A stretch of 64,000 bases of DNA from a virus, in the IMG/VR virus record IMGVR_UViG_3300037502_002960, positions 19,360 through 83,359 of that record; one strand, given 5' to 3'. Shown one piece after another: positions 4,628-62,126 of this stretch. Every line of letters begins with the position of its first letter. The stretch's first letter is position 1. The position numbers were made by a program, and so were the translations under genes. A model generated the notes under the pieces. The model saw only the letters and a program-made list of their open reading frames with translations. It was not told the origin of the DNA and made no database searches.

Positions 4628-6214
4628 TTATTTATTTCTATATTTTTCAACTAAACCACCATAAGGTGTTTCGTCTACTTTATCTTTGCTGAAACTTAAC
4701 TTAATAGTTTCTTTTTCTTTCTTTGTAAAATTCTTTTTGCTAGCAACTTTTTTACCTAAAATTGCATAACATTTTTCTTCAATTTCTTCTAAAGAAAATT
4801 CATGAACATTAATATCTTTTACATCTTCTTCGTTTAACTGGAATTTTTCAAAGATATCTTTCGAGTTAGATTCATGCTCATCTTTTAACTTATCAAGTTT
4901 AAACTCTTTTAACTCTTCATTTTCTTCTTTTAAAGATTCGTATGTAGAGCGCATTAAACTTAAAGCATCTTTTTCTTCTTTTGTTAAATACTCAGCGAAT
5001 ACCTCACCTAAGTTTTCTACAAGTTCTGCTTTTTCATTTACAATCTGATAAGCAATCTTATAATGCTTGTTTTCGCTATAGTTATAAGCAACAAAGGTTT
5101 TTTCAAACACTTCTGTTACATACATATCACCGTAGCCTAATTCTTCAATTAAACCATAAAGTGATGAACGAATATCTTCATGAGACATTTCAAAAAACAC
5201 TGTAAATACCTTGTCTTCTTTTTCTTCATCTTCTGTATTTTCGTCAATAACTTCTTCTAAAGTTTCTTCTGTTACTTCATCATGATTTTCTTCATCTTCG
5301 GTCTCAGTATCAACTTTATCTTCAGTTACGACTACAGTCTCTTCTTGAGATTCTTCTTGTTCAACTTGTTCAACTTTATCTTCTGCTAAAATTTCATCTT
5401 CTGAATCATCTTCAACATCGGTATCAAAAGCTTCTTTCACAGCAACTTCCAAATCTTCATCGTTTAATGATTCAAAGTCAATATTTTTTGCTGTTAAATC
5501 TTCTTTTGAAATAGAATATTTTTCTAACAATTCTTCAAGCAATTTACTATCCCCTTTCTCTTCTGATAAGGAAGTTTTTAACTCATAAATCATATGAGAA
5601 AACTCTTTCTTAAATTCATTTTTATTCAAAGAGTAACCAGTTATACTAGCATCTTCAAAGGCTGGCTCAACATTGTCGCCCAAAATACATAATGCTGAAA
5701 AATTGAAACCATCAATAATATAAGTGTCTTTTTCATCAGACCATTTTCCATCTGTGATTTCAATCTCCATTGACTGACCTTTGCCATTTTCAATAATGTC
5801 ATAAGCTTCTTCGTATCTACCAGTCCACAAGTAACACCCATGGATTGTCAAATACTCTCTTGTGACACCATCGTCACCTTTAACTTCTTCCCATTCATAT
5901 GTAGCTGATTCTGGAACAACACCGTATGGCTTTGTTGTATGAATATATTTGTATGTATCAATATCAATTTTGCCACCGTGACCTTTATAGTCTTCTGATT
6001 CAACAGAGTATTCTCCAACAATCGGAATATTTTTTAACGTGGGAAGAGCTTTTTCGACCGCATTTTTTGTAATGTAAGATGCGTTTCTATTCTGTCCAGT
6101 ATACATAACTCTTACTTTGCAGGTAGAGAAAAGTGGATTAATCGCTTTAACATCACTAATATTTGCTTTAAACTCTAAAATTTTATCCATTTTTACTTCT
6201 CCACCCCCTTTCAA
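4628..6214 (-). CDS. Prohead protease/scaffold (YonD-like)
   Basis: N-terminal protease-like domain (GQSMEI, FSALCILG..VEPAF) and acidic coiled-coil C-terminus; true start probably the second Met (~6190). Confidence 0.75.
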   Translation of the reverse strand: MKGGGEVKMDKILEFKANISDVKAINPLFSTCKVRVMYTGQNRNASYITKNAVEKALPTLKNIPIVGEYSVESEDYKGHGGKIDIDTYKYIHTTKPYGVVPESATYEWEEVKGDDGVTREYLTIHGCYLWTGRYEEAYDIIENGKGQSMEIEITDGKWSDEKDTYIIDGFNFSALCILGDNVEPAFEDASITGYSLNKNEFKKEFSHMIYELKTSLSEEKGDSKLLEELLEKYSISKEDLTAKNIDFESLNDEDLEVAVKEAFDTDVEDDSEDEILAEDKVEQVEQEESQEETVVVTEDKVDTETEDEENHDEVTEETLEEVIDENTEDEEKEDKVFTVFFEMSHEDIRSSLYGLIEELGYGDMYVTEVFEKTFVAYNYSENKHYKIAYQIVNEKAELVENLGEVFAEYLTKEEKDALSLMRSTYESLKEENEELKEFKLDKLKDEHESNSKDIFEKFQLNEEDVKDINVHEFSLEEIEEKCYAILGKKVASKKNFTKKEKETIKLSFSKDKVDETPYGGLVEKYRNK

Positions 6215-13673: not shown

Positions 13674-13894
13674 AAATATTTGATATATATATTAACATAA
13701 GTTAATTTATATAAAAAATCAAGATTCTTTTGGGTTTCTGTCTAAACTTAAAACCATATAGTTTGAATTCCAAAAATTATATCTTTTTGAATTTAAACTA
13801 TCTTCTTCTAGCCCTGTATCATAACTGTATGAACCTTTATAAGTTACACAGTCATTATAGAATGGTGTTTTTGCAGAGCCTTCTGTATCTTTTC

Positions 13895-47218: not shown

Positions 47219-48340
47219 ATGGCAGAATTGAAAGAAACAAAAGGTAAATTTAAGGTTGTAGGTAAAGTGTCACGTATTGACCGTGACGGAGCATTTAAAG
47301 AAAGTATTATGGATAATCAGAATAACAAAAATCACGGTAGAACTTATCGTGCCTTACGTTTTGGAGTTAAGACGTCAGATACAAATGAAATTTTTGTTGG
47401 ATGTTTTGACTATGAACCAGAGGAAGTTTTTATGTGGAATAGTGAGATGAAAAAAGCTGACCCTTCATACAAAGGGACACGGGTTCCACTTGGTGATTGG
47501 GAAATGAACAAAAGCAAGTACAAAGAAGACGGATACGCTGTTTTACAATCACGTATTGGTCTAGATTGGAAAGACGATGGAAAGCTTGATACAGAAGGTT
47601 TACCACGCTATATCACAAGCAAGTTGTTATATGATAATCTTAACAATGGTGACCCAGTTGCTGTAGAAGGTACTGTACGATACAGTGAATACCAGAATCA
47701 ACAAGGTCAAACAGTGAAAAGGAAAGATTATACAATTGAGAAAGTATTCCGATTAAAGAAATTAGATTTTGATTCAGAAGACTTCAATGAAGTATCTTAC
47801 TTTGAGCAAGAAGTTGTTTATGTTGATGTAGACATTGATAAGAAAGAGAAGAAAGCTTACTTAACAGGTCGTGTCATTGACTACTTTAAAAACTTTGTTG
47901 ATATGGATTTTGTGGTCAACTTTGGTACAGAAGATGGTGGTAATGACCCAGATATGGTTAAACTAGCTGAAGCGTTAGCCAAAAAAGTTAAATTTGGTGA
48001 TGTAATTAATGTTTACGGTAATGCTGTTAATAAGATGATTGTTACTGAAGAAGAAGATGATGAAGTTGATGAAGCAGATGAACTAATCAAAAGCCTTGGT
48101 GGTAAGTCTAAGCCTAAACATGCCCAAGGATATGTTGCCAGAACTTATATCACAGAGATGGAAATTGAAGGTATTGACGCTTGGGATGAAAAAGTTTATT
48201 CAGAAGATGATTTCATTAAAAAAGAAACTATTGAAAATTCTAAGTCTGGATTAGGCGGTAAAAAGAAAGCTGACCCATTCGCTAACTTAGATGATGATGA
48301 TGGAATTGAAGACGTTAGTGATGACGAGTTGCCATTCTGA
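47219..48340 (+). CDS. Single-stranded DNA-binding protein (YorF-like, tandem OB folds)
   Basis: V.VEG.V.YSEY OB motif, acidic DDELPF tail; promoter 47103-47131. Confidence 0.75.
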   Translation: MAELKETKGKFKVVGKVSRIDRDGAFKESIMDNQNNKNHGRTYRALRFGVKTSDTNEIFVGCFDYEPEEVFMWNSEMKKADPSYKGTRVPLGDWEMNKSKYKEDGYAVLQSRIGLDWKDDGKLDTEGLPRYITSKLLYDNLNNGDPVAVEGTVRYSEYQNQQGQTVKRKDYTIEKVFRLKKLDFDSEDFNEVSYFEQEVVYVDVDIDKKEKKAYLTGRVIDYFKNFVDMDFVVNFGTEDGGNDPDMVKLAEALAKKVKFGDVINVYGNAVNKMIVTEEEDDEVDEADELIKSLGGKSKPKHAQGYVARTYITEMEIEGIDAWDEKVYSEDDFIKKETIENSKSGLGGKKKADPFANLDDDDGIEDVSDDELPF

Positions 48341-48450
48341 TGCAGTACATAATTAAATAAGATATTTTTAACACCATAAAAACAGTAAAAACATAGGTGT
48401 AAAATAAAATTAGGAAAACACCCCTTTTGAATAAAAGGGAGAAATTAAAT

Positions 48451-49873
48451 ATGGGATTATTAGACAAAATTAAGCCACACAAAGTAGTAGCAGATGCATT
48501 TAATTACAAGTACGTTATCGCTGGTAAATAGTTTGCCACATTATGTAGCGATGCATAATTGCAAACCCCTCTATAAAACGGGAAACCCTAAGTCTTAAAG
48601 ATATGGCGACCCGAACCGAAGTTGTAATTTAAAAGTTACAACAGGTGCAACGAGTAGAAATTGAAACTAAATCTATCATTTAACCTATAAACAAAAAGAG
48701 TTTTCTATATTCTGTATAACAGAAACCACTAATTATTACGGGTGATTTTAGGATTAGAATAAAATATTTCCAAGAGAGAGGGGCATCTCACTGAGATGAA
48801 AAGGTACTCTGAACTAAAACAGAATCGACTGTTTGTATCTTATATTCCCGGTATAAGAGATGAGGGAAACCTCTAGAATTATCGGATAAAGAGCCGATGA
48901 GGTAACAAAATTGAGACCAAAAGCGGGAAAAACAAGTTTAGTATATGGTATTGTAAAAGAAAAATATGACGAAGATTTATCTAAGTTACTCCTTATCGCC
49001 TTCGAGAAAGGTTACAACGCTCTTGATGGAATCTATGCGAATGACATTGATGAATGGAGAGACTTCCAAGAGTTAGTTGATGAGCTTGTAGAAAGTAAAG
49101 ACGATGTTCCATTCAAAGCTTTAGCCCTAGATACAGTTGATGTTATGGGTAAAATGGCTACAGATTACATTCTAAAGACTCAATCACGAAAAGACGGCAA
49201 GCGTTATACAGCAATTAATGATTTGGCTTATGGTAAAGGTTATGAGTTGCTTGAGCGTGAAATGTCTGAACAGATTACAAAGCTAGATAAAGCAGGATAT
49301 TCTTTATTCTTCCTTACGCATGATAAAGACCGACAGTTTGAAACACGTGAGGGATTAAAATATGATAAAACAACACTATCGCTTGGTGGTCGTGTACGTG
49401 ATTTAGTCCTTAATATGGTAGACTTTATTGTGTTTATTGAGTTAAGCAAAGAACTTGTTAAAGGTGTTGCTGAAGACCGACGCTATATTTATTTCCGTGG
49501 TGATAGTGGTCTAGAGGCTGGTAGTCGATTTAAGCATGTGCCCAATCGAATCGAATACTCTTACAAAGGTTTTGTTGATACAGTAGAAGAAGCCATTCTT
49601 GCAGAGTATGGCGGAGACAAAAAAGCTGTAGAAAAAGCTAAGAAAGAACAAAACAAGGAAAAAGAAGAGAAGGCAAAAGAGTTTGTTGAAACCACTAAGA
49701 TTACTGCCGAAGAATTACAAACAAGTATTATTGATTTGGTAAAAGGTTTTGAAGCAGATAAGCGTAAAGATGCAATTGCTATGCTAAAATCTGAGCTTGG
49801 TAGCGCAGACCCACGAGAATCAGAAGATACTGACGCTTTAGGCAAAGTTTTAGAAGATTTGAAAAAAATGTAA
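48451..49873 (+). CDS. Sak4/AAA_24-like ATPase (YorG-like); exons 48451-48525 and 48914-49873
   Basis: Spliced Walker A YVIAG|RPKAGKT, FEKG, LDTVD, YGKGY, AGSRF; 344 aa after splicing. Confidence 0.85.
48526..48913 (+). mobile_element. Group I intron (388 nt, no ORF) inside Walker A
   Basis: P1 GGU|AAA pairs with UUUGCC, AAACGGGAAACC core, GCAACGAGUA/UACUCUG P7, ends AACAAAAUUG; removal fuses the frames. Confidence 0.88.
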
Positions 49874-49966
49874 TAAAATAAGGATTTTATCGAGTAAAAA
49901 GTACCCCCATAACTATGCTTATGGGGACACTTTTTCTCTAAAAATCCACTAAATTGGAGTGATTTT

Positions 49967-50629
49967 TTGAGTTATAATAAAAAAGACAAATTATTGCTTA
50001 TTACTATGGCGATAATCTTTGTTCTTTCACTTTCCTTCACTTTTTATAGAATTAACCAATCGACAGAAAAGGTTTTGGAATTTGAAAACGAAAACGAAAT
50101 CCTAAAAGAGAATGCGATTCTAAAAGAGGTTGAAATTTCTAATTTGATTTCAGAAAATGAATCGTTAAAAGAATCTGTAAAACAAAAAGATGATGAAATT
50201 TTTGAATTGAACCAGAGCCTAGAAAAATCTCAATCGGAAATCGACACACTCAAAAAAGAGGTAAAAAATTTAAAAAAGATTAAATCCTCAACGGTAAAAT
50301 CAAGCTCTAGCGCAAAGGGAAAAGAGATTAAGGTTTCAGCAACAGCCTATACAGCGACATGTGATGGTTGTAGCGGTATTACATACACTGGTCATGATGT
50401 GAGAAATACAATTTATAAAAACGGTAACAGAATCATTGCCGTTGACCCTAGTGTAATTCCGCTTGGGAGTAAAGTAAAAGTTGAAACAGATAATGGATTG
50501 AGTTTTGTGGCTACTGCCCAAGACATTGGTGGTGCTATAAAGGGTAGAAAAATTGATATCTTAGTTGCAACTAAATCTAGAGCGTATGAAATCGGTAGGG
50601 TTGGGGCTACTGTTAAAATATTAGAATAA
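49967..50629 (+). CDS. 3D-domain cell-wall hydrolase (YorM-like), TM plus coiled coil
   Basis: ATAYT, IAVDPSVIPLGS, AQDIGGAIKGRKIDI. Confidence 0.88.
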   Translation: MSYNKKDKLLLITMAIIFVLSLSFTFYRINQSTEKVLEFENENEILKENAILKEVEISNLISENESLKESVKQKDDEIFELNQSLEKSQSEIDTLKKEVKNLKKIKSSTVKSSSSAKGKEIKVSATAYTATCDGCSGITYTGHDVRNTIYKNGNRIIAVDPSVIPLGSKVKVETDNGLSFVATAQDIGGAIKGRKIDILVATKSRAYEIGRVGATVKILE

Positions 50630-50639
50630 GGGGTGTCAG

Positions 50640-51149
50640 ATGGCTATCATTATTTTAGAAGGTTGTGACGGTGTAGGTAAAGATACTGTAGCTGAAAGTA
50701 TTTCAAAAGATTTAGGTATGCGAATTTTACGTGGCTCATCTTTTGAAATTTCAGAACTTGGTAAAGACGGAATGTTTGATTACATGATGAAATTATTAGA
50801 TAGCGATAACGTTATTTTAAATAGATTTTTTTATTCAAATATTGTTTACGGCAAAATCTTTAATTACCCCATGATGGATTCAGAGCAATATTCAAAGCTC
50901 TTAGAAAAAGTCAATGACAAGGGTGTTCTTGTTGTGAATCTAGTCTCAAGTGAAGATATAATTAAAGACAGGTTGGACAAACGTGGTGATGATAAAGTTA
51001 AATCTGAGCATGTTTCTGACATTATTAACTCTTACAGTGATGAGATGAAAGGGTTTTTCAAACCAGAAAAGCTTTTAATAGTTTCTAATGAAAAAGAGTC
51101 TGACATACATTTTATTAAAAATATGGTAAAAAATCTTGTAAAAGAGTGA
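50640..51149 (+). CDS. Deoxynucleoside monophosphate/thymidylate kinase-like (YorR-like)
   Basis: IILEGCDGVGK, NRFFYS..VYG, RGDD. Confidence 0.8.
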   Translation: MAIIILEGCDGVGKDTVAESISKDLGMRILRGSSFEISELGKDGMFDYMMKLLDSDNVILNRFFYSNIVYGKIFNYPMMDSEQYSKLLEKVNDKGVLVVNLVSSEDIIKDRLDKRGDDKVKSEHVSDIINSYSDEMKGFFKPEKLLIVSNEKESDIHFIKNMVKNLVKE

Positions 51150-51264
51150 TATTGTATCACTCTTTTTTTATTTTGTTTATAAAATCTGTTGACAATAGTT
51201 AATAATAATGATATAATGTATTTAAGTTAAAAAGTAAAAATAAAGAAAGTGAGGTTAAACGCAA

Positions 51265-52656
51265 TTGGGAAAAAAGAAAGTAAAAATAGATTTTAATCAG
51301 AGAGTTTTTTCTATGTACGGAGAGAACCCTCCATTCTATGACAATACAGAATTTAAAGGTGTAAATGAATACATGTCTGTAAAATGTTCAAAGTGTCACA
51401 GAGAAATAAAAAACAAAGCAAGAATGTTTATTAGACCAGACAAACCTTTTAAATGCGGGTACTGTTCTGGAAAATGGAAAAATACTGAAATATTTAAAAA
51501 AGAAATTTATAATTTAGTTGGAAACAAATATACACTGATGTCTGAATATAAAGGGGCGCACGAGGTTGTTTTTATTGTTCATAATCTTTGTGGCAAAGAC
51601 TTTGAGACTACACCAAATAAATTCATAACTAAAAACAAAAGGTGCACAAGCTGTAGCGTTTCCAACGGAGAACAATTAGTAAAAGATTATTTAAATAAAA
51701 TGGAAGTTGGATACGTATATGATAGAAAATTTATAGGTAATAAAACGTGTTTATCTGAAAATGGTAGAAGTCTTAGATTTGATTTTCAAATTATAAATAA
51801 TAATGGTAATGTTTGTGGAGTCATAGAGTTTGACGGAGAACAACATAGTTCTGCAAACCATTATTTTCATGATAACGAATATAGAAATACTGATGATATA
51901 AAAAATAATTTTTGTAATAAAAATAATATTCCCATACTAAGAATAACTATATGTGAAATTTTAAAATCAAAAAATACTTTATCAACGACAGATAATATAT
52001 CTATAATTAAACTGAATGAAAAGATAGAGGGATTTATAGATGGTCTAAATGAGGACTTAGATTTAGGAAAAACTATTTTAAGCGAAAGAATAAATAGAAA
52101 AAATGAAAAAATTATAAACAAGGGGAATGATATCCTTGAAATATTAAAAGGTGAGAACTTAAACTGGAAATGGATAAAAAATTATGACAGATTATACAAA
52201 ATAAGCGACAAGGGTGATATTATTAAATTCAATTCAAAAGGAAGCCCAATTAAAAAGATGAGTAGTTTTAAAAATGGTAAATATCTTTCAGTTAATTTAA
52301 CATACAATAAAAAAACAAGTAACTATAACCTTTCAAAGTTAATATATTCTACTTTTAAAGACATTGAATATGAAAATTTGAAAGACATGTATATACAATA
52401 TAAAGACGGGAACGAAACCAACACCTCTATTGATAATCTTATATTAATATCTAGAGACGAGTGGAGTAGAAAAACTTTTAATATGAACAAAAAGGGTTGT
52501 TTCAAAATAGACCCAAAGACAAAAAACAGAACCTATTATCACCCGATATCTTCTGCCTCAAATGATGGGTATGACCCTAGTGCCATTGTAAAGTGTTGTA
52601 AAGGAAAGAATAATATGTACAAAGGATTTTACTGGGAATATGATAATTTTTACTAA
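51265..52656 (+). CDS. Free-standing homing-endonuclease-like fusion (Zn ribbons, PD-(D/E)xK/Vsr-like, NUMOD4, degenerate HNH, NUMOD1)
   Basis: LRFDF..IEFDGEQH..D.IKN.FC..NNIPILRI; WKWIKNY..LYKISDKG; YKDGN..N...NL; SAIVKCCKGK..YKGFYWEY. Confidence 0.7.
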   Translation: MGKKKVKIDFNQRVFSMYGENPPFYDNTEFKGVNEYMSVKCSKCHREIKNKARMFIRPDKPFKCGYCSGKWKNTEIFKKEIYNLVGNKYTLMSEYKGAHEVVFIVHNLCGKDFETTPNKFITKNKRCTSCSVSNGEQLVKDYLNKMEVGYVYDRKFIGNKTCLSENGRSLRFDFQIINNNGNVCGVIEFDGEQHSSANHYFHDNEYRNTDDIKNNFCNKNNIPILRITICEILKSKNTLSTTDNISIIKLNEKIEGFIDGLNEDLDLGKTILSERINRKNEKIINKGNDILEILKGENLNWKWIKNYDRLYKISDKGDIIKFNSKGSPIKKMSSFKNGKYLSVNLTYNKKTSNYNLSKLIYSTFKDIEYENLKDMYIQYKDGNETNTSIDNLILISRDEWSRKTFNMNKKGCFKIDPKTKNRTYYHPISSASNDGYDPSAIVKCCKGKNNMYKGFYWEYDNFY

Positions 52657-52774
52657 ACTCAATTTATGGGTATGTGTTATGGAGTCAAAAAGCAAAAGAA
52701 AATATTTAAAAGTTTTAAAAAACTATTGACGAATATAAATAATAATGATATAATATATTTATAAGTTAAAGGAG

Positions 52775-53005
52775 ATGATAAAAATAAGTACAGAAAACTT
52801 GGATAGAGTAATATTATTTAACACATTTATTGAAATATCTGAAAAAGTAAAAAGGTTAAGCTCTATAGTACAAAATGAACTTGACTTTGAAAATGAAGAC
52901 CTAGATGAATATTTTGAAGTATTTGATTATGTAATTATGGATTTAAAAGAACAAAAGAAAGAGATTCAACTATTTATTGAATCTCAAACAAATAGCAAGA
53001 AGTAA
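52775..53005 (+). CDS. Small acidic helical protein upstream of the CRISPR locus
   Basis: 76 aa; promoter 52726-52754. Confidence 0.5.
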   Translation: MIKISTENLDRVILFNTFIEISEKVKRLSSIVQNELDFENEDLDEYFEVFDYVIMDLKEQKKEIQLFIESQTNSKK

Positions 53006-53039
53006 GAAGACAGGATAAGGTGCTGTTATAATACAGCAC

Positions 53040-53210
53040 CGTAACTACTCTGCGCATACTTTGGTGCGCTAAACCTAGAAGTGCCAGATAGAAACAAAAT
53101 ACATATAGTCTTTTGTTTTACGAATATAATAAATCTGGTAACACTCGGTAAGTTCCACTTTGGTTGGAACGGCTGTGTTATGAAAATAGAATATAGCAGA
53201 ATGTGCAAAA
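53040..53210 (+). ncRNA. Cas12f tracrRNA
   Basis: 5' hairpin GCGCA-UACUUUGG-UGCGC whose loop CUUUG pairs with repeat 3' CAAAG; AGAAGUGCCA...UGGUAACACUCGGUAAG as recalled for AsCas12f1 tracrRNA; anti-repeat 53172-53201; boundaries approximate. Confidence 0.8.
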
Positions 53211-53352
53211 TTACTAAATTATCTTTTGAATCATAAAAATAAGTGAAATCAAAATAGCCTCTATAGAGAGGAAAAAACGACACTGGTTTACTTGTTAAAA
53301 TGATAATTTTAAGAGATTTGATGGTAGGTGTTGAAAGAATACTACTTGCGAG

Positions 53353-53586
53353 GTTTTGCCACCATTATATTTAGCACAGTAACAAAGGGAAACGGAAGTT
53401 CATGAAAGCTGGAAAACGGTTTTGCTACCATTCTATTTAGCACAGTAACAAAGGTTTGATTAATACACCAATATTCATTTTCACGTTTTGCTACCACTCT
53501 ATTTAGCACGGTAGCAAAGGGCGTTGACAGAGTTGTTTAAGAATATGTTTGTTTTGCCACCATTCTATTTAACACAAGTGGTAAAA
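53353..53586 (+). CRISPR. Mini CRISPR array: four 36-nt repeats, three 30-nt spacers
   Basis: Repeats at 53353, 53419, 53485, 53551 (last degenerate), consensus GTTTTGCTACCATTCTATTTAGCACAGTAACAAAGG; exact 66-nt period. Confidence 0.95.
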
Positions 53587-53644
53587 AACAAATAAAATAG
53601 CGAGTATATTAACATTAACAAAATAAAAGAGTAGAGGTATTAAC

Positions 53645-55078
53645 ATGACAACAAAAACACTTAAAATAAAGATTGTAAAACCGCTAGATACAGACTGGAA
53701 AGAATTTGGTGAAATTTTAAAAGATATTCAATATGACTCTTGGAAATTATCTAATAAAATGATTCAAGGGCTATGGGAGTTTAATAATGAAAATTTTAAA
53801 TACAAAGAAAGAACTGGTAATTACATTGACCTAAAAAAAGATAGGTTATTATTTAAAGACCTAGGCAATAGTAAAAAATATTATACAAATGTCTTGTCCG
53901 ATATAAAAAACCTCTTAAAGAAAGAAGCATACAAACTAAGTAGCAGAGGGTATCAAGCTTTAGGAAAGATGGTTAATGACTCTTGGAATATTCACTACCA
54001 AGATATCGTTAATGGAAGGGAATCAATTATCAACTTTAAAAAAAACTTACCAATTGAACTTCACAACTTACAAATGATGAACAATATAACAAAAGAGCTG
54101 ACACTTAAAAAACAAGACATTAAAGGTAAAGACTGGTACGAAATCTCGTTTAATCTAATTTCAAAAACCTATTCGAAAGAACTTGGCTACAAAAATGGAT
54201 GGTTTAGAGTTGCTCTTGATGTACGAGATAATTATCAGAAAGCTATTGTTGATAGAGTTATTAGTAAAGAGTATAAATTATCTATGAGCAAGTTAACACA
54301 AGATAAAAAAGGTAATTGGTATTTCATGATGGCTTATACGTTTGAACCAAAAAAGAAAGAATTGAATAAAGAAAGAATTATGGGAATTGATTTAGGTGTA
54401 AACATTCCTGCTGTTATTGCAATTAATGATGATAATTACTATAAGCAAAATGTTGGTAGCAGAAAAGAGATTCAAGATTTTGAAAAACAAGTCATTGCAC
54501 GTAAGAAAAGTTTACAAAATCAACGTAAACATTGTGGAGATGGCAGTATTGGTCGTGGGATTAAAACAAGGTTAAAGCCTTTAGATAAGATTGGTAATAA
54601 AATTTCAAACTTTAAAAACACTAAAAATCATTGTTGGAGTCGATATATCGTTGATGAGGCTGTTAAAAATGAGTGTGGTGTAATTCAAATGGAAGATTTA
54701 AGCGGTATCTCAGACAACAATAAGTTTTTAAAGACTTGGACGTATTATGATTTACAACAAAAAATCGCTTATAAAGCTAAAGAAGTTGGTATTGATATTA
54801 AAATGATTAAACCATCGCACACATCAGCACGTTGTAGCAAGTGTGGTCACATCCATAAAAAAGAAGACAAACCTTTATGGAGACCAACGCAAGAACAGTT
54901 TAAATGTATGAATTGTGATTATGGTCATAGACGTTTTGTTAATGCGGATTTTAACGCATCTAAAAATATAGCAACAAAAGACATTGAAAAGATTATTGAA
55001 AAGCAGTTAAAAGAACAGAAAAAGAAAGAAAACATTAATTTGAAAAAGAATTATGATTTAGTAGAAGAAAATATGTAG
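53645..55078 (+). CDS. cas12f: Cas12f1 (type V-F, AsCas12f1-like) RNA-guided nuclease
   Basis: IVKPLD.DWKEFG.IL N-terminus, RuvC GIDLG / QMEDL / NADFNA intact, WTYYDLQQKI.YKA, CSKCG..CMNC; adjacent array and tracrRNA. Confidence 0.92.
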   Translation: MTTKTLKIKIVKPLDTDWKEFGEILKDIQYDSWKLSNKMIQGLWEFNNENFKYKERTGNYIDLKKDRLLFKDLGNSKKYYTNVLSDIKNLLKKEAYKLSSRGYQALGKMVNDSWNIHYQDIVNGRESIINFKKNLPIELHNLQMMNNITKELTLKKQDIKGKDWYEISFNLISKTYSKELGYKNGWFRVALDVRDNYQKAIVDRVISKEYKLSMSKLTQDKKGNWYFMMAYTFEPKKKELNKERIMGIDLGVNIPAVIAINDDNYYKQNVGSRKEIQDFEKQVIARKKSLQNQRKHCGDGSIGRGIKTRLKPLDKIGNKISNFKNTKNHCWSRYIVDEAVKNECGVIQMEDLSGISDNNKFLKTWTYYDLQQKIAYKAKEVGIDIKMIKPSHTSARCSKCGHIHKKEDKPLWRPTQEQFKCMNCDYGHRRFVNADFNASKNIATKDIEKIIEKQLKEQKKKENINLKKNYDLVEENM

Positions 55079-55102
55079 TTAAAAATTAGGAGGAGTTTTT
55101 TT

Positions 55103-55423
55103 ATGGGAAAAGTAGTAGTTAGTATTTATCACACATATGGCAAAGGTGACGGAGAAGAGTTGTCTGACAGATATATTATTAATAATACAAAAGAAGAGCG
55201 TGAAGGTATTTTTGAAACTTTTGGTTATGATGAAGCTGTAGACAATAAAAAAGATTTCATTAATGGTAAAATTGACCAATTCAGTTTTGATAAGTTTGGT
55301 GGGGATTGGGATGAACCAACAGGTGGATATATTTTAATTGATACAAAAGAAGAACTTGTTTCTCAAGCAGAGAATAACTATAAAAAAGAATTAGCTAAAA
55401 TTGATGAGTTATTTTCTCGTTAA
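55103..55423 (+). CDS. Hypothetical protein
   Basis: 106 aa, AGGAGG RBS. Confidence 0.6.
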   Translation: MGKVVVSIYHTYGKGDGEELSDRYIINNTKEEREGIFETFGYDEAVDNKKDFINGKIDQFSFDKFGGDWDEPTGGYILIDTKEELVSQAENNYKKELAKIDELFSR

Positions 55424-55443
55424 ATTTAGACAGGAGGGAAAGT

Positions 55444-55899
55444 ATGTTAAAATTTTGTGTGGAACAATGGGATAAAAACAAGAATTTATTAAGAGATGAT
55501 ATTGAGTTTGACAAAGAATTTTACAAATATTGTTATTATAAAGACCTTGTTTCTAAAATTGTTGAAATTATTTTTAATACAGATAATGAAAAAAAGTGTG
55601 ACATTGAAAATATCACATGTGTTGATAACGGTGACTATCAAGGTGTTCAACTGTTTTTAATACCAAGGGATTGTTATCAACCGACCGAAACAGAATATTT
55701 AATGACATATGTTAATTATGGTTCATGTAGTGGATGTGACACTCTATTGTATGCTCAAAGCAGTGATGATACACTTGTTAATGATATTATGACACTATCA
55801 TTACATATTGTACAAAACACAACGAAACCATATAAGGGCGGATGGGGATATTATAATTTTGAAAATGTGGAGGTTGATAAAGATTATGGGAAAAACTAA
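55444..55899 (+). CDS. Hypothetical phage protein (YGSCSGCD motif)
   Basis: GDYQG..., YGSCSGCD. Confidence 0.6.
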   Translation: MLKFCVEQWDKNKNLLRDDIEFDKEFYKYCYYKDLVSKIVEIIFNTDNEKKCDIENITCVDNGDYQGVQLFLIPRDCYQPTETEYLMTYVNYGSCSGCDTLLYAQSSDDTLVNDIMTLSLHIVQNTTKPYKGGWGYYNFENVEVDKDYGKN

Positions 55900-56374
55900 G
55901 GTTGTTATCAAAGAAGTTGGGTTTAAATTTTCACCCAGTGTTTATGATAAAGCTAATGTAGGTTTAAGCGCAGGCTATAATGTAAAATTGACTGAATCTA
56001 TGTACGTCTACGATGCTGTTTTTATGAATATTGATGCAGATACTGTTTCTGTTGGAAGTAAAATTAATTACGGTGAAAAATATTATATTGTTGAAAGTGT
56101 AGAAACTTTACATATAGTTGGAGATGAATTAGAGCAAGATGTAAAAAAAGTAATTAATGTAAGACCAGAAAAAGATAATCTAGAAAATAAGGAAACAACT
56201 ATCTCTTATAGCAGTTTGATTGAATTTGAAAAAGAGCTGAAAAAACAACTTGAAGACAAACAATATGAATATTTAATTGCAAAAGAAAAAATTCGTGAAC
56301 TAGACTGTAAACTAGGAGCATATAAAAATAAACACAAAAAACTTAAAAAACTACTGTTTTTCTGGAAAAGGTAA
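55886..56374 (+). CDS. Hypothetical protein
   Basis: Likely start MGKTK after GGAGG. Confidence 0.5.
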   Translation: MGKTKVVIKEVGFKFSPSVYDKANVGLSAGYNVKLTESMYVYDAVFMNIDADTVSVGSKINYGEKYYIVESVETLHIVGDELEQDVKKVINVRPEKDNLENKETTISYSSLIEFEKELKKQLEDKQYEYLIAKEKIRELDCKLGAYKNKHKKLKKLLFFWKR

Positions 56375-56393
56375 AAATAAAGGAGGGTCGATA

Positions 56394-56705
56394 ATGGACG
56401 TAATTAAAAGAATAGATATCAAAGAGTTTCGAGAAAAAGGGTATCTACAAGAAATTAATAGACAATTTTTACACCCCTTGGGATTAGCTTTAGAGATTAT
56501 TTTTGATGAAGATGGTGTAGAGCATTTGGGTGGTATATGGGATTATCGTGAAGACCCAGAAGGCATTTATTTTTCTGAAGAAATTGTTAAATTAGATAGA
56601 TTTAGTGATTCCATAGAGTTTATCGAAAACGAAAAGAAAAAGAGGGAAAATGAGAGAATTAAAAAATTTGGCAGTGTAATACAAACCCCTGGTAAAAAAG
56701 ACTGA
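56394..56705 (+). CDS. Hypothetical phage protein
   Basis: GYLQEINRQFLHPLGLAL, AGGAGG RBS. Confidence 0.6.
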   Translation: MDVIKRIDIKEFREKGYLQEINRQFLHPLGLALEIIFDEDGVEHLGGIWDYREDPEGIYFSEEIVKLDRFSDSIEFIENEKKKRENERIKKFGSVIQTPGKKD

Positions 56706-56909
56706 TTTTTATAGTTTTAAGAATCCCCTCTATAGAGCATAAAAAAGGGTACTAAAAAACTTGATAAAAGAATAGTTTTATCAACAACAAATCTAAAAAT
56801 AAGGTATATATAAAAATATGCCTTATTTTTCTATTTAGGCATATTTACCCTTGACAAAAATCAATAATAATAGTATAATTATATTATGATACAAAAAGGA
56901 GGAGAAAAA

Positions 56910-57503
56910 ATGGGCAGAGTAGTTAAATGTCAATATTGTGGCGAAAAAGATACAGAAACTCAAGATATGGAGTTTGAGGTTGTAGGTGTTTCTAAGCCAC
57001 AAAAAAAGTATTATCACAAACAATGTTACCCTAATTATCTAGAAGAAAAAGAATTCAAAGAGAAAGAGCGCAAAGAAAAGGATGAATTAGTAGAGGTAAT
57101 TAAAGATATTTACGGTGTTAAAGACTTACCATATCAAGTATTCCCTTTACTTGAAAGCTTAAGAAACGGTGAGCAAGTTTTTGGGGGAAGAAAAGAAAAC
57201 AAGCGATATAAACAAGGTTATACCTACCCCATTATTATGGAAACATATAAATATTGCCAAGATACCATTGAGTATTGGAATAGTGTTAAGAATTTTGACG
57301 GGTTTATTGGTGCATTTAAATATGGGTTATCGATTGTTTTAGACAAGTTATACATAGTAGAATCAAGAGAAAAAGAAAAAGAGCAAAAAGAAAAAATTAT
57401 GGATTCGTTTATGGATAATAATGCAGGATTCCATGACGAGTTTACTACAAATTATAAAAAGAAAAACAATAAGAATGATGACATTTTAGATTTTCTTGAT
57501 TGA
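56910..57503 (+). CDS. Replication-associated Zn-binding protein (YorH-like; possible helicase loader)
   Basis: CQYCG..YYHKQC; promoter 56851-56879; upstream of helicase. Confidence 0.6.
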   Translation: MGRVVKCQYCGEKDTETQDMEFEVVGVSKPQKKYYHKQCYPNYLEEKEFKEKERKEKDELVEVIKDIYGVKDLPYQVFPLLESLRNGEQVFGGRKENKRYKQGYTYPIIMETYKYCQDTIEYWNSVKNFDGFIGAFKYGLSIVLDKLYIVESREKEKEQKEKIMDSFMDNNAGFHDEFTTNYKKKNNKNDDILDFLD

Positions 57504-57516
57504 GAGGTAGATTTTA

Positions 57517-59049
57517 TTGGCAAAAGATAAAACAGATGAGCTTATTAAGAAACAGGTAGAAGAAATTAACAAAACTGCCGAGGTAAACGAATCATATTTG
57601 ATTGGCTTATTGTGGTCAGACCCATTTGAAAACTATACAGAATATAGTGAAGTCCTAAACCAAGATGAATTTATCCATGATGTATGGGGATTCTTTTTTG
57701 AATTTGGTCGAAGAATGTTTAAAGATGGTGTTAATAAATTTGATGAAATTACTGTAAAAATGAAGTTAAAAGAGTATAATATTGAAGAAGAATTTAATAG
57801 CTATAACGGTTTCAGCACAATTCATGATGTAGTAGATATTGTACAGCACTATAAAGATAATATTGAATACTATTATGAAACAGTAAAAAAGAATTATGTT
57901 GTTAGACAGCTTTTTCTTCTCTTTGGAAAAAAGGTTTTACTTGCATCTGGTAAGTATGACTGGAAAAAGATGAATCGTGAACAGTTGGTTAAATATTGGA
58001 ATGATAAACTTAATAACATATCTATGAACAATGTTTCTACATATGATATCGAAAACCTTTATATTGAGGCTGATGAGTTTATTGAAAGGCTAGAAAAAGA
58101 TGCGTCTGATATGCTACCATACTACAACAGTAAACTATTAAATACAATCTCTCAAGGTACACCACGTGGACACGTAACAATGATTGGCGGTTTTGGGGGT
58201 AGTGGTAAATCAAGTATCACGGCATCTAAATTTATTATGTCTTGTATAGAAAATAAAGAGAGAACAATTGTTGTCTTAAATGAGGAAGATGCGCAGGCTT
58301 TTAGACAGAAAATTGTTTTAACAATACTTTACTATGAGTTCTCTACTGGTATTGACAGAAAAAGAATGGTCAATGGTAGTTTAGACGAAAAAGATAAAGT
58401 AAAAATCAGACATGCATTTAAACGCATGAAAGAGCTTATGGATGGTGAAGATGCCTTAATCAAGGTTTTATTTATGGAAAGATATGTAATGAAAGACCTT
58501 GAGAAAATTGTAAGATTTTGGGCTAATAGAGGTTATGATAATTTGCTTATCGATACGCACAAGCCATCAGATGATTCAGAGCATGATTCCAGATGGGAGA
58601 CATTTACGGAAGATATGAAAACAATTTATCGATGGACACGTAAGAATGCGGGAGGTATGAACCTTAGAACAGTGGTGACATTCCAGTTAGCTGATACCGC
58701 TGTCAGATACAGATATTTAGATTTTGAGGCTATTGGTGAGGGTAAAAAAGCTAAGAACGAGGCTTCAATCATGTATATGTTTAGAACAGCTTGGGCTGAT
58801 GAATATGAGGGTGGTAAAAGAGAGCTTGACTGTTATACTCTCAAAAAGATGCCTAATGGGGAATATGGTAAAGTACCTTTTAAGCTAGAAAGTGGTAAAA
58901 CATACTATCTTTGGTTTACACCTAAAAACAGGTTTGGGCAAGCAAATGATACAGGGTTACCAGTATTAATTGTAGAGCCAATGTTTAATGCTAACGTGTT
59001 TAAAGAAATAGGTTGGTGTTATGTAGCAAATGATAAATCTGGTAGATAA
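57517..59049 (+). CDS. DnaB-like replicative helicase (YorI-like)
   Basis: GGFGGSGKS, LNEED, LIDT, TFQL, KNRFG. Confidence 0.85.
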   Translation: MAKDKTDELIKKQVEEINKTAEVNESYLIGLLWSDPFENYTEYSEVLNQDEFIHDVWGFFFEFGRRMFKDGVNKFDEITVKMKLKEYNIEEEFNSYNGFSTIHDVVDIVQHYKDNIEYYYETVKKNYVVRQLFLLFGKKVLLASGKYDWKKMNREQLVKYWNDKLNNISMNNVSTYDIENLYIEADEFIERLEKDASDMLPYYNSKLLNTISQGTPRGHVTMIGGFGGSGKSSITASKFIMSCIENKERTIVVLNEEDAQAFRQKIVLTILYYEFSTGIDRKRMVNGSLDEKDKVKIRHAFKRMKELMDGEDALIKVLFMERYVMKDLEKIVRFWANRGYDNLLIDTHKPSDDSEHDSRWETFTEDMKTIYRWTRKNAGGMNLRTVVTFQLADTAVRYRYLDFEAIGEGKKAKNEASIMYMFRTAWADEYEGGKRELDCYTLKKMPNGEYGKVPFKLESGKTYYLWFTPKNRFGQANDTGLPVLIVEPMFNANVFKEIGWCYVANDKSGR

Positions 59050-59107
59050 TCTATTGACTAATGTAAAAAATAATGGTATAATGTATTTATCATGTTGTTG
59101 AGAAGGT

Positions 59108-60199
59108 GTGATAATGTCCGATTTAAAATTAATTAAAAATAGACTTAGGGATTATGACAAGATTGAAAAATTATTAGAGAAGATGGGTTGTGAATATGTT
59201 AAAATGGAACAAGGTGGTGACTTGGTTACAGCCATGTTACCGCCCAAGTTCAACAGCAGTAATAAAAGAGCTTTACAAGTTAGAATGAACGACTCAATAT
59301 ATTGTCAAATAAGAAATCGTGGAGATTTTAATGGTGGTAGCATATTCGACTTAGTTTCATATATTCAATTTGATAAACGTGGAGAAAAAGAAATAAATAA
59401 AAATTTACCAAAATCAAAGGAATATATATGTAAAACTTTTGGTTGGGAAGAGTATTTAGGTAATAAAAACAATGTATTTGTGAAAGATTACACAGCTTCA
59501 TTGAAAGAGCTTATTGGTGGTAAAAGAAAACGAAACAATTTTGTTCCAAATGAGGTTATTAGTGAATCTATACTAAATCAGTTTTACATTGATAATCAAC
59601 CAGTGCCATATTATGAATGGGTAAAAGAGGGTATACCATCATATGTACAAAGGTTATATGGTATCGGCTTTGACTTACTTAGTAGACGTGTAACAATACC
59701 TTTAAGAAATACAAAAGGTCAATTAGTTGGAGTAAAGGGTCGTACAGTTGAAGAAAAAGATAAAGAAGATAGAAAATATTTGTACTTATATCGATGTAAT
59801 AATAGATATGAATGGTTTAATTTCTATATTGCTAAAGATTATATTATAAAAAGTAAAAAAGTTTTCATTTTTGAATCAGAAAAATCTGTTATGAAAGCAG
59901 TTTCATACGGGTATTTTAATTGTTTATCAATAGGTGCTACAGATATTTCTTCTGAGCAATCGAATCTTTTAAATAGCTTAGGTGAAGATATTGAAAAAGT
60001 TTTATGCTATGACAAGGACAAAACGATTGATGAAGTTACTGAACAGGTAAATAGATTGGGTTCAAATAATGTTTATGCGATGATTGACACCGATGATTTT
60101 CTTGAAGGCAAAGACGCTCCAGTAGACAAGGGTAAAGTTATCTGGGAAAATTTAGTAGACAATTATGTGTATGAACTTTCAACAGAGAAGCAAGAGTAA
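59108..60199 (+). CDS. DNA primase, TOPRIM (YorJ-like)
   Basis: RVTIPLR..G.LVGVKGR, KYLY, FESEKSV, CYDKD. Confidence 0.85.
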   Translation: MIMSDLKLIKNRLRDYDKIEKLLEKMGCEYVKMEQGGDLVTAMLPPKFNSSNKRALQVRMNDSIYCQIRNRGDFNGGSIFDLVSYIQFDKRGEKEINKNLPKSKEYICKTFGWEEYLGNKNNVFVKDYTASLKELIGGKRKRNNFVPNEVISESILNQFYIDNQPVPYYEWVKEGIPSYVQRLYGIGFDLLSRRVTIPLRNTKGQLVGVKGRTVEEKDKEDRKYLYLYRCNNRYEWFNFYIAKDYIIKSKKVFIFESEKSVMKAVSYGYFNCLSIGATDISSEQSNLLNSLGEDIEKVLCYDKDKTIDEVTEQVNRLGSNNVYAMIDTDDFLEGKDAPVDKGKVIWENLVDNYVYELSTEKQE

Positions 60200-60241
60200 A
60201 AAATAATGATATAAAAATAATGTTTATAAAGGGGTTTTTCT

Positions 60242-60385
60242 ATGAGTTACAGTTTAAAAGATATTGAAAATGGTTACGTAGAAATGGGCAAGATTAATTT
60301 AGAAATCAGCGAAAGTTGGTTTGTGGCAGAAAATGAATCAATGAAAAACCTTGAAAGTAATATTGGTGGTGTTGAAAATGAGTAA
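60242..60385 (+). CDS. MazE/NdoAI C-terminal-like antitoxin peptide (47 aa, not in track)
   Basis: MSYSLKDIENGYVEMGKINLEISESWFVAENESMKNLESNIGGVENE; GY.EM..INL.IS....AE.E motif; AAAGGGG RBS. Confidence 0.75.
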   Translation: MSYSLKDIENGYVEMGKINLEISESWFVAENESMKNLESNIGGVENE

Positions 60386-62126
60386 GATTCATTGGGTAGA
60401 ACGAAAAGCAAAAAAAGAAGTGTCAGATTTTGACAGCATTCAAGAAAAAATCTGTAAGATTAGGGGAATTGATGAGCCGAGTCGATTTTTCAGCCCAACA
60501 GAAAATGAACTCTTTGACCCAAATCTTTTAAAAAATGTGGATTTGGTAATTAAAAGAATTACAAAAGCTATCGAAAACAAAGATAAAGTTTGTATCAGTT
60601 TTGACTGTGATGTTGATGGTATTACAAGCGGTGTCATTACATATAGATATTTAAAAGAATATATTGGTGAAGAAAATTTATCATATATTTATAGTGAACG
60701 TGGTGACGGTCACGGAATTAATGAACAGATTGACTTAGACTTTGTTAAAAAGAAACATATTGATGAAGATGGAGAAATTATTGGGGAAGCAAGAAAAGAA
60801 AGATATGAATTAAATTCTGAAAATATTCAAAAAATTAAAGATTCAGACCTTTTAATTATTGTTGACTCCTCAACAAACGATGCAGACGGATGTAAGAAAA
60901 TTAAAGAAGAGTATAAAACAGATGTTTTAATCATTGACCACCACGAAGTAGAAAACGAAAATGAATATGCTGTTATCGTTAATCCTAAACAGAATGGTTG
61001 TAAATACCCTAACAAAGAATTATCTGGTGCAGGGGTTGTTTATAAGGTTTTAACAGTATTAGAAGAGTCGCTTGGTGAAGCAGGAAATGTTAATGTTGAA
61101 TACTTTTCAGATTTAGTGGCACTAGGTATGTATGCAGATGTCATGCCAGTAGACGTATACGAAAATAGATACCTAATCATGCATGGACTAAGAAATATTA
61201 AAAATGTTGGGGTAAAGCGTATTTTGAAAGGTGCTAAAGAAGATTTATTCAAATTAAACTCTGATTCAATTGGGTTTTCTATTGCACCTTTAATTAATGG
61301 TGTTGCAAGATTAAATCAGATTAAACTAGCGATTGATATTCTTTTAACAGATGATGACGATGTTGCAAAGAAAATTAGATTAAAAATGCACAAGCTAAAC
61401 GAGAAACGTAAGATTATGCAAAAAGAAATTATTGAACGATATGAAAGTATGTTAGATATTAATCATAAAATTATCTTAATCAGTGATGATGAGAGTAGTA
61501 AGGGATTTAATGGTCTTGTTGCTCAAAACTTAGCTAGTAAATACCAAAGACCAGTAATTGTTGGTCGTGACCATAGTGGTAATTTTAGTGGAAGCTTCAG
61601 AAGTATCAATAGTTTTAATTTAAAAGAGTTTTTGTCTAATTCTGGACTAACAGAAGAAGTTATGGGTCACAATCAAGCTGGTGGTTTCACTATTAAATCG
61701 GAAAAAATTGATGAACTAGTTGAATATATTGAAGAAAACATGCCAGACCTGTCAGAGACAGAACAATATTATACATACGATTTTGAATTATCTCCACAAG
61801 AAATTGATGATGATTTAATTAAAGTGATTGAATACGCAAACCTTGTCACTGGTAATAGATTTCCAAAGATTGTTGTTAGAGTTAATGACATTTTGATTGA
61901 ATCGGTAAACACAATTGGTAAAACCATGGAGACTAGAAAATTTAAAACACTAGGTAATCTTGAAATGATTAAGTTTAAAGTTAGTGAAAACTATGCAAGA
62001 GAAGTTAATGGTTTTGACTCTTTAGATGTCATTGGAGACTTATCTAATAACGAGTGGTACAATTTTAAGACAAAAGTAAAAACTATAACACCTCAGATTA
62101 AAATTTTAGACTATAAGAAACAATAA
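60378..62126 (+). CDS. recJ: RecJ-like DHH ssDNA exonuclease (YorK-like)
   Basis: DCDVDG, IVD, IDHH, LSGAGV, AD, APLING..R, GS.RS, GH.QAGG. Confidence 0.9.
   Translation: MSKIHWVERKAKKEVSDFDSIQEKICKIRGIDEPSRFFSPTENELFDPNLLKNVDLVIKRITKAIENKDKVCISFDCDVDGITSGVITYRYLKEYIGEENLSYIYSERGDGHGINEQIDLDFVKKKHIDEDGEIIGEARKERYELNSENIQKIKDSDLLIIVDSSTNDADGCKKIKEEYKTDVLIIDHHEVENENEYAVIVNPKQNGCKYPNKELSGAGVVYKVLTVLEESLGEAGNVNVEYFSDLVALGMYADVMPVDVYENRYLIMHGLRNIKNVGVKRILKGAKEDLFKLNSDSIGFSIAPLINGVARLNQIKLAIDILLTDDDDVAKKIRLKMHKLNEKRKIMQKEIIERYESMLDINHKIILISDDESSKGFNGLVAQNLASKYQRPVIVGRDHSGNFSGSFRSINSFNLKEFLSNSGLTEEVMGHNQAGGFTIKSEKIDELVEYIEENMPDLSETEQYYTYDFELSPQEIDDDLIKVIEYANLVTGNRFPKIVVRVNDILIESVNTIGKTMETRKFKTLGNLEMIKFKVSENYAREVNGFDSLDVIGDLSNNEWYNFKTKVKTITPQIKILDYKKQ

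Follow-up and report, generated by a model that had tools for sequence, protein, structure and literature searches.

Cas12f is the smallest well-studied nuclease of CRISPR systems. Among described systems, the closest to the one reported here is AsCas12f1 of Acidibacillus sulfuroxidans (type V-F1), whose single-guide RNA consists of four stems together with a pair of repeat:anti-repeat segments (bioRxiv 10.1101/2023.07.03.547593). Type V-F lineages are described as largely devoid of adaptation modules and as heterogeneous in repeat length (PMC10691335). The source of the spacers in such adaptation-less V-F (formerly V-U3) arrays is an open question in the field. In this study, we analysed a viral DNA stretch of 64,000 nt (hereafter the window), bases 19360-83359 of the 83,359-bp IMG/VR record IMGVR_UViG_3300037502_002960, which originates from a subsurface metagenome and is ~51% complete according to CheckV. 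The window very likely carries a self-contained type V-F1 (AsCas12f1-like) CRISPR module, made of a trans-activating CRISPR RNA (tracrRNA), a leader, a mini-array and a cas12f gene, all on the plus strand. An original prediction, made from the letters of this DNA, had described these parts (array, leader, tracrRNA and a 477-aa Cas12f) and had proposed that the array is filled by a type II-A system of the host. The description was borne out by our repeat, open reading frame (ORF) and structure-homology results; the proposal, which we retain tentatively, is weighed below.

An AsCas12f1-like effector

The cas12f1 gene (53645..55078, + strand) starts 58 nt 3' of the last repeat, on the same strand as the array, and is the one Cas12f gene of the 83,359-bp record. 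Its 477-aa product matched the Pfam Cas12f1-like TNB family (3.9e-16) and the NCBIfam guided_TnpB family (8.5e-45; 153.7 bits, cut-off 100), while the Cas12f2 model scored 105.9 bits, under its cut-off of 450. AsCas12f1 structures (PDB 8j12, 8j1j, 7wju and 8dzj) aligned to residues 4-456 (E=4.5e-81), indicating full-length homology to an As-type V-F1 effector. The predicted intact D/E/D RuvC triad was confirmed: D249, E350 and D435, together with the two CxxC pairs of the zinc ribbon (C397, C400, C421 and C424), were invariant across 27 aligned homologues and match the motifs of AsCas12f1. Among 8,000 candidates scored, 549 proteins matched at E<=0.001, the best non-self match being 65% identical; named matches came from Lysinibacillus, Bacillus smithii, Sporosarcina and Ureibacillus. 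AsCas12f1 differs in its length (422 aa versus 477 aa), and the present locus is phage-borne. We consider it a genuine phage-borne V-F1 Cas12f system that is probably functional.

A predicted tracrRNA fitted to the repeat

A tracrRNA-like scaffold was recognised at 53050..53203 (+ strand, ends approximate) by its duplex with the repeat and by homologous scaffolds in relatives. It lies 5' of the array, whereas the tracrRNA of AsCas12f1 lies between gene and array. The scaffold comprises a hairpin with a CUUUG loop (53052-53069), a conserved motif (53142-53147), a second hairpin (53152-53170) and an anti-repeat (53171-53203), the latter pairing with repeat positions 1-29. The predicted duplex of 53040-53210 with the repeat reached -29.2 kcal/mol, as compared to -15.8 +/- 3.0 kcal/mol for 500 shuffled repeats, none of which was as low (0/500). 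Since the anti-repeat pairs with the repeat starting at base 1, the view that the parts are co-adapted held.

The long tracrRNA of AsCas12f1 makes two repeat:anti-repeat contacts (bioRxiv 10.1101/2023.07.03.547593; PMC8548392), and two are likewise predicted here. The original prediction had the tracrRNA match the repeat twice. The anti-repeat duplex stood up to shuffling, but the second match, a 5-bp CUUUG:CAAAG pairing between a hairpin loop and the repeat, was not significant alone (18/200 shuffled tails were at least as good). Two hairpin loops read CUUUG (53059-53063 and 53158-53162). The 5-bp pairings of an R:AR-2 pseudoknot were each non-significant (18-135 of 200 shuffles were as good) and were kept as a covariation hint only. 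Indeed, the loop complement covaries with the repeat 3' end among relatives, labelled L with a number hereafter: CUUUG:CAAAG here, CUUAG:CUAAG in L054, and UUCA:UGAA in L002, L011, L013, L015 and L018. The same architecture was found 20-230 nt 5' of the array in 13 of the 23 related loci examined, always in the order GC hairpin, conserved motif, second hairpin and an anti-repeat fitting that locus's own repeat. An Rfam scan returned no family at its gathering score (CRISPR-DR41 stayed at 16.4 bits, its cut-off being 36).

Elsewhere in the window, a single further segment matches the tracrRNA anti-repeat in its strength of pairing with the repeat. This 48-nt segment (13833-13880, + strand) can pair with the whole 36-nt repeat (-27.4 kcal/mol; 30 pairs, including 4 G-U). 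On the minus strand, 11 nt of it are identical to the repeat, and its surroundings read like degenerate coding DNA; it may be a chance match or a stray repeat-like element.

The array and its leader resemble a type II-A insertion site in part

As originally described, the array consists of four 36-nt repeats (53353-53586, starts at 53353, 53419, 53485 and 53551, period exactly 66) and three spacers of exactly 30 nt. The repeats vary in sequence. On the + strand, repeat 1 (R1, 53353..53388) differs at 2 positions from repeat 2 (R2, 53419..53454), which equals the array consensus, and repeat 3 (R3, 53485..53520) differs from R2 at 3 positions. Repeat 4 (R4, 53551..53586) is degenerate, with 10 changes relative to R2, mostly in the 3' half, and 10-11 differences to R1-R3, almost all in that half, as expected for a terminal repeat. 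R1-R3 end in CAAAGG. Spacers 1 (53389..53418), 2 (53455..53484) and 3 (53521..53550), all + strand, had no protospacer in the searches given below. An AT-rich leader (53204..53352, + strand) precedes the array; its last 7 nt (53346-53352), TTGCGAG, abut R1, as predicted from the sequence. With a slash marking the boundary, the leader ends ACTACTTGCGAG/GTTTT and the leader-repeat junction reads TTGCGAG/GTTTTGCC.

The 36-nt repeats, the 30-nt spacers and the GAG/GTTTT junction set this locus apart from AsCas12f1. Type II-A spacers are ~30 nt long with a narrow spread. In a survey of type II-A loci, 36-nt repeats were found in 163/167, repeats start with GTTT, their last base was C in 167/167, and those of Groups 1-2 end in AAAC (PMC5382924). 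Leaders in the same survey end in ATTTGAG (87 loci), CTRCGAG (55) or CG (25) (PMC5382924, Van Orden 2017), and 117/142 Group 1-2 loci have a GAG/GTTT junction (PMC5382924). The first integration cut is directed by ~10 bp of leader and the first repeat bases (PMC5382924; PMC6895254, Kim 2019), and the second is set by a ruler element near the far repeat end, at a G on the opposite strand (PMC6895254). Our locus resembles II-A arrays (PMC5382924, PMC6895254) in its 36-nt repeat, its GTTTT start and its GAG/GTTTT junction, and its leader end matches CTRCGAG at 6/7 positions. It differs in that II-A systems carry cas9, cas1, cas2 and csn2 beside the array, whereas here these are missing, the effector is Cas12f and the repeat ends in AAAGG. 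The II-A likeness claimed for leader and repeat was thus upheld for repeat length, repeat start and the GAG junction and lost at the repeat 3' end, and pattern scans did not find the repeat itself in the genomes searched.

We also compared the locus with contigs of four sequencing runs. Run X2 contained the same sequence in short pieces, and runs X3 and X4, from another study, contained a ~93% identical variant with two repeats only. A hairpin just 5' of the scaffold (53020-53039) has a 6-nt TATAAT loop that reads ATTATA in this variant, on the same stem. Array content varies among close relatives, which could reflect loss as easily as gain.

Array classes are not inherited with the effector

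For comparison, we fetched 47 related viral loci and the best 80 of 460 metagenome loci; most of the relatives fetched carry small arrays beside the gene. L002, L005, L054, L011, L013, L015 and L018 share with our locus the order tracrRNA-leader-array-cas12f, a homologous scaffold, small arrays and viral records without Cas1. Nevertheless, relatives at 36-55% identity with arrays of at least 4 copies (L002, L005, L011, L012, L013, L015, L018 and L023) have 29-33-nt repeats and 32-39-nt spacers, and the leaders of L002, L011, L013, L015 and L018 end in GG. The claim that the array is unlike those of As-type relatives was thus correct: it is an outlier among its nearest Cas12f kin, and since these closest relatives have another geometry, array geometry does not appear to be inherited with the effector. 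L054, the second-closest relative (59% identity), also has a period of 66 nt, and its repeats are related to ours at the 3' end but unlike them in the 5' half. In this locus (196-317), the tracrRNA motif abuts the first of two repeats, and the 5 nt preceding both repeats are alike, which suggests a natural fused guide as well as growth by duplication.

Among 34 non-redundant arrays of at least 4 copies beside relatives, only L090 and L095 had a GAG leader end; both combine 36-nt GTTTT repeats and 29-31-nt spacers with a perfect ATTTGAG/GTTTT junction. The combination of exact 30-nt spacers with GAG/GTTTT at our locus has its like in L090 and L095 but was seen in 0 of the 32 remaining arrays surveyed. 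L092, whose leader ends in ATTTGGG, also belongs to this gut and rumen group; like our locus, the group has GTTTT repeats of 36 nt, spacers of 29-31 nt and a leader that ends in GAG (or GGG) directly before the repeat. The three differ from our locus by their Group 1 (ATTTGAG-type) motif, by a scaffold that abuts the array and by mutually identical repeats, which suggests recent growth. Their effectors (30-36% identity over the RuvC half) form a distant clade, so that Cas12f must have come together with a II-A-style array on at least two occasions. This was also apparent when array classes, labelled manually, were mapped on a quick IQ-TREE phylogeny of the effectors (L037, L045, L049 and L082 were left out, their ORFs being too short): the II-A-style class arises at least 2 times, and one clade of five effectors (WIN for the present one, L053, L054, L002 and L005), with 98% support in the SH-aLRT (Shimodaira-Hasegawa-like approximate likelihood ratio test), spans three array classes. 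The L090 repeat also ends in AAAGG, thus this end can coexist with a perfect II-A leader motif.

The gut contig L090 shows three mini-arrays (3300-3430, 4780-5100 and 5150-5300) around one Cas12f-like gene. In two of them, an ATTTGAG leader lies directly 5' of 36-nt GTTTTAGA repeats, and a conserved hairpin and anti-repeat precede each, so that these arrays appear to serve the Cas12f-like gene; from its sequence, the layout looks like a scaffold fused to the array. Elsewhere, arrays with ~29-33-nt repeats and ~32-39-nt spacers (L002, L011, L013, L015, L018, L030 and L049) have leaders ending in GG, those of L034, L036, L061 and L062 (~32-34-nt repeats, 32-37-nt spacers) end in GCA, and other arrays of similar geometry have CC, CG or AG, which suggests several integrase specificities among Cas12f-linked arrays. 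In L040, L041 and L042, a relative that is 31% identical is followed, ~450 nt 3' of it, by five GC-rich repeats of 28 nt that recur every 61 nt (4706-4977). We take these repeats to be of type I-E appearance; this may be another Cas12f-like gene beside an array in the style of another type.

No adaptation genes in the record

Consistent with the original prediction, no Cas1, Cas2 or Cas4 was found in the 83,359-bp record, itself about half a genome. Csn2 was not found in the record either, in a search run without a positive control, and no gene of the window has the size of Cas9, since its largest ORF is 740 aa. We also searched 46 of the related viral records for Cas1 (L035 was left out): none had it (0/46), 16 of them being at least 90% complete. 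Adaptation-less Cas12f modules are therefore common among phages. In the flanks of metagenome arrays with 36-nt repeats and 30-nt spacers (60 ORFs, 9 loci), no Cas1, Cas2, Cas4 or Cas9 appeared among the 25 of 40 Pfam families listed; among the families listed for L090, L092 and L095, no cas1 or cas2 was seen.

Genomic context of the module

The helicase of this phage shares 70% identity with its counterpart in Bacillus phage vB_BcoS-136, and the next matches are other Bacillus siphophages of 140-170 kb. The genes at 47219-51149 and 56886-62126 are collinear with vB_BcoS-136. In between lies a 5.7-kb insert (51150-56885) with no counterpart in that phage, which has only ~150 nt and a terminator at this spot. 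The insert contains a homing HNH endonuclease gene, which adjoins the CRISPR module, a 76-aa ORF, the module itself and four small ORFs. The carrier is a Bacillus-type siphophage with an expected genome of roughly 160 kb, and the module is accessory cargo. No near-identical DNA turned up among GenBank phages when the locus was searched by megablast.

ORF76, ORF106, ORF151 and the HNH gene had no homologue in any other Cas12f locus fetched and were rejected as parts of the system. No neighbour recurs beside other Cas12f genes, and we therefore consider the tracrRNA, the array and cas12f as the unit. ORF76 (52775..53005, + strand, 76 aa) lies directly 5' of the tracrRNA region and has no Pfam or PHROG family; since every other Cas12f locus that we fetched lacks it, it does not qualify as a conserved partner. 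Ahead of it, a putative sigma-70-like promoter (52726..52754, + strand) was noted by its consensus match alone (TTGACG, 17 nt, TATAAT, with a TG extension; 11/12 consensus positions). Judging from its position, it could drive the whole module.

Proposed loading of the array by a host type II integrase and its alternatives

By homology to AsCas12f1-like systems, the array transcript would pair, over the full length of the repeat, with the tracrRNA that the phage itself encodes. Processing would leave a 3'-repeat handle with the spacer after it, and a Cas12f dimer would cut matching DNA beside a 5' PAM (protospacer-adjacent motif), most likely in rival phages or plasmids. The array itself may be shaped to suit a type II (II-A-like) Cas1-Cas2 integrase of the host, which would insert spacers in trans, if rarely. 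As a whole, a V-F1 cargo module combined with host type II loading in trans is our best explanation, although it falls just short of an even chance. Loading of the array by the host integrase, taken by itself, is the best single explanation and is put forward tentatively, at somewhat below even. We infer the acquisition by host Cas1-Cas2-Csn2(-Cas9) that the original prediction had invoked from leader and repeat features that fit in part; 0 hosts and 0 protospacers were found. More broadly, phage Cas12f arrays might tailor their leader end, repeat length and repeat ends to a host integrase and leave immunisation to the host. For this Bacillus-type phage, a type II-A-like Cas1-Cas2(-Csn2-Cas9) would act as donor. 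The resulting hybrid, in which adaptation is of type II and interference of type V, would have arisen independently of that in gut-phage Cas12f clades, with selection keeping the minority of spacers that by chance have a 5' PAM. This complete scenario is possible but doubtful.

Several observations weigh against host type II loading. The II-A rule for the repeat 3' end fails, the repeat ending in AAAGG and not AAAC, against a last-base C in 167/167 loci, and the II-A integrase favours a G where it makes its second attack (PMC6895254). The CTRCGAG group is restricted to five Lactobacillales and Listeria genera, whereas the nearest kin of the phage infect Bacillus. In the ~93% variant, the C at position -4 of the leader is T, so that GAG is preserved and the leader end matches ATTTGAG or CTRCGAG at 5/7 positions; moreover, its spacer region does not align and is 9 nt shorter, giving a lone spacer of ~21 nt by gap arithmetic as opposed to 30. 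The geometry of 36-nt repeats and 30-nt spacers, originally read as a type II mark, does have the II-A repeat length, but it also occurs in the Cas12f-linked arrays L081, L085 and L059 with non-GAG junctions. R1, R2 and R3 differ pairwise by 2-5 nt. Acquisition should leave R1 identical to R2, thus no recent acquisition is visible, and since these two differ at 2 positions, the last insertion, if any, is old. The repeat scans used exact patterns, which a diverged or unsampled host repeat would escape. With this scope, a 25-nt degenerate repeat core had no match in the viral, species-genome and metagenome collections, and a looser degenerate 24-mer gave 2 single matches in 185,579 species genomes (an Alphaproteobacteria metagenome-assembled genome and Dyadobacter), neither of which is an array. 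This 24-mer admitted both repeat forms, and the originally noted similarity to one kind of II-A repeat, read as its reverse complement, was not verifiable (0 arrays); no host type II-A locus in these genomes shared the repeat. Identical or near-identical repeats were absent from IMG/VR, the species genomes, JGI metagenome contigs and plasmids, and a blastn search of 72,556 plasmids with the array yielded chance matches only. For the spacers, blastn of each against 50,697 GenBank phages stayed at chance level (E>=2; at most 90% coverage, 86% identity), exact 30-mers had 0 matches per spacer in IMG/VR, and blastn-short matches within the 83 kb of the phage itself and all the loci fetched did not exceed 19 nt; as no protospacer was found, no PAM could be read. 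Finally, spacers picked by Cas9 for a 3' PAM would meet the 5' PAM of Cas12f by chance only. Both the GAG junction and the degenerate repeat point to the II-A direction, and therefore only spacers with a chance 5' PAM would be usable; in the only case of a type II donor shown by experiment, that of a type VI-B array with II-C, opposite transcription flips the PAM side (PMC8092290).

Many of these observations also fit a functional module whose array is not fed by type II machinery, an explanation that we consider doubtful though a substantial possibility. The tracrRNA and array would then be inherited or swapped as a unit, changing by recombination, duplication and deletion, or another integrase would act on the array (a V-F-linked Cas4-Cas1-Cas2, a II-C one, or one encoded in the missing half of the phage), 36/30 and GAG being coincidence or shared integrase ancestry. 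The divergence of the repeats, the absence of the repeat from II-A loci and other arrays searched, the repeat 3' end unlike that of II-A (PMC5382924) and the 36/30 arrays with other junctions beside Cas12f relatives all speak for it, as do the heterogeneous repeat lengths of V-F (PMC10691335). The two L054 repeats with the same upstream 5 nt recall duplication rather than acquisition, and GAG alone is expected at ~1% from base composition (an estimate). The record represents about half a genome, thus a phage integrase in the missing half is possible, but Cas1 is lacking in all 46 related viral records, including 16 near-complete ones. The co-occurrence of 30-nt spacers and GAG/GTTTT here and in L090 and L095, and in 0/32 other arrays, also argues against this explanation, and the switching of geometry classes among close effectors is hard to explain without different integrases.

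A fossil array with fixed guides, in which no acquisition occurs and the three guides serve rival exclusion, homing or regulation in the manner of a TnpB omega-RNA or a regulator resembling a CRISPR RNA, is unlikely. It would account for the small number of spacers, the diverged repeats with a degenerate last one, the spacers unmatched in GenBank phages, in IMG/VR (exact) and in the phage's own 83 kb, and the adjoining homing endonuclease gene; CRISPR repeat-like regulatory RNAs have reportedly been described as well. Against it, the RuvC triad is intact, the array of the ~93% variant differs, so its content is not fixed, and the 83 kb contain no self-match (0) that could be a regulatory target. 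It is very unlikely that a host Cas9 with a host tracrRNA reads the array, also or instead, the phage mini-array hijacking type II interference, or, as a variant, that the array works in the reverse sense, with R4 as the insertion end and a type II 3' PAM becoming a 5' PAM for Cas12f. Phage mini-arrays with host repeats are known (PMC11656645), in the reverse sense the repeat ends in AAAAC and is flanked by ATTTGTT (5/7 to ATTTGAG), and the VI-B and II-C systems use PAMs on opposite sides via opposite transcription (PMC8092290). Nevertheless, the phage tracrRNA, a homologue of Cas12f scaffolds, pairs with the entire repeat, no host repeat matched in the genomes searched, and in the reverse sense the degenerate R4 would be insertion-proximal and the repeat would not start with GTTT; a reverse orientation of the array is thus unlikely.

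Implications for phage-borne Cas12f systems

The Cas12j (CasPhi) systems of huge phages reportedly combine a small phage-borne Cas12 with an array. They are cited in PMC8548392, and Cas12p is described as a 'hacker' phage-borne miniature type V system (bioRxiv 10.1101/2025.01.20.633832). Like the present locus, these small phage Cas12 with arrays are presumed to act against rival nucleic acids and usually lack an adaptation module. They belong to different Cas12 families, and in the portions of these papers covered here a II-A-style array signature is not reported. Cross-type loading in trans has been shown by experiment for a type VI-B array using II-C machinery in F. columnare (PMC8092290), and a plasmid IV-A3 array is reportedly loaded by I-E (Benz 2024, cited in PMC11656645). 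Both cases resemble the loading proposed here: an adaptation-less array is filled by the Cas1-Cas2 of another type, its leader and repeat having only some of their features in common with the donor system. They differ in that both systems reside in one cell's genome or plasmid, whereas here the recipient is viral and the donor is only proposed. Our literature searches returned no paper pairing Cas12 with a II-A leader motif and, among the papers listed, none in which type II machinery loads the array of a type V phage system.

In practical terms, the locus offers a compact As-type Cas12f together with a predicted, defined tracrRNA and repeats of 36 nt. Should the connection to II-A not hold, it is an ordinary further phage-borne V-F1 system. 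If host type II loading is correct, it would provide cross-type spacer acquisition with its first example between virus and host and would pose a testable puzzle, namely how spacers chosen for a 3' PAM are used by a 5'-PAM nuclease. It would also explain why repeat length is heterogeneous in subtype V-F.

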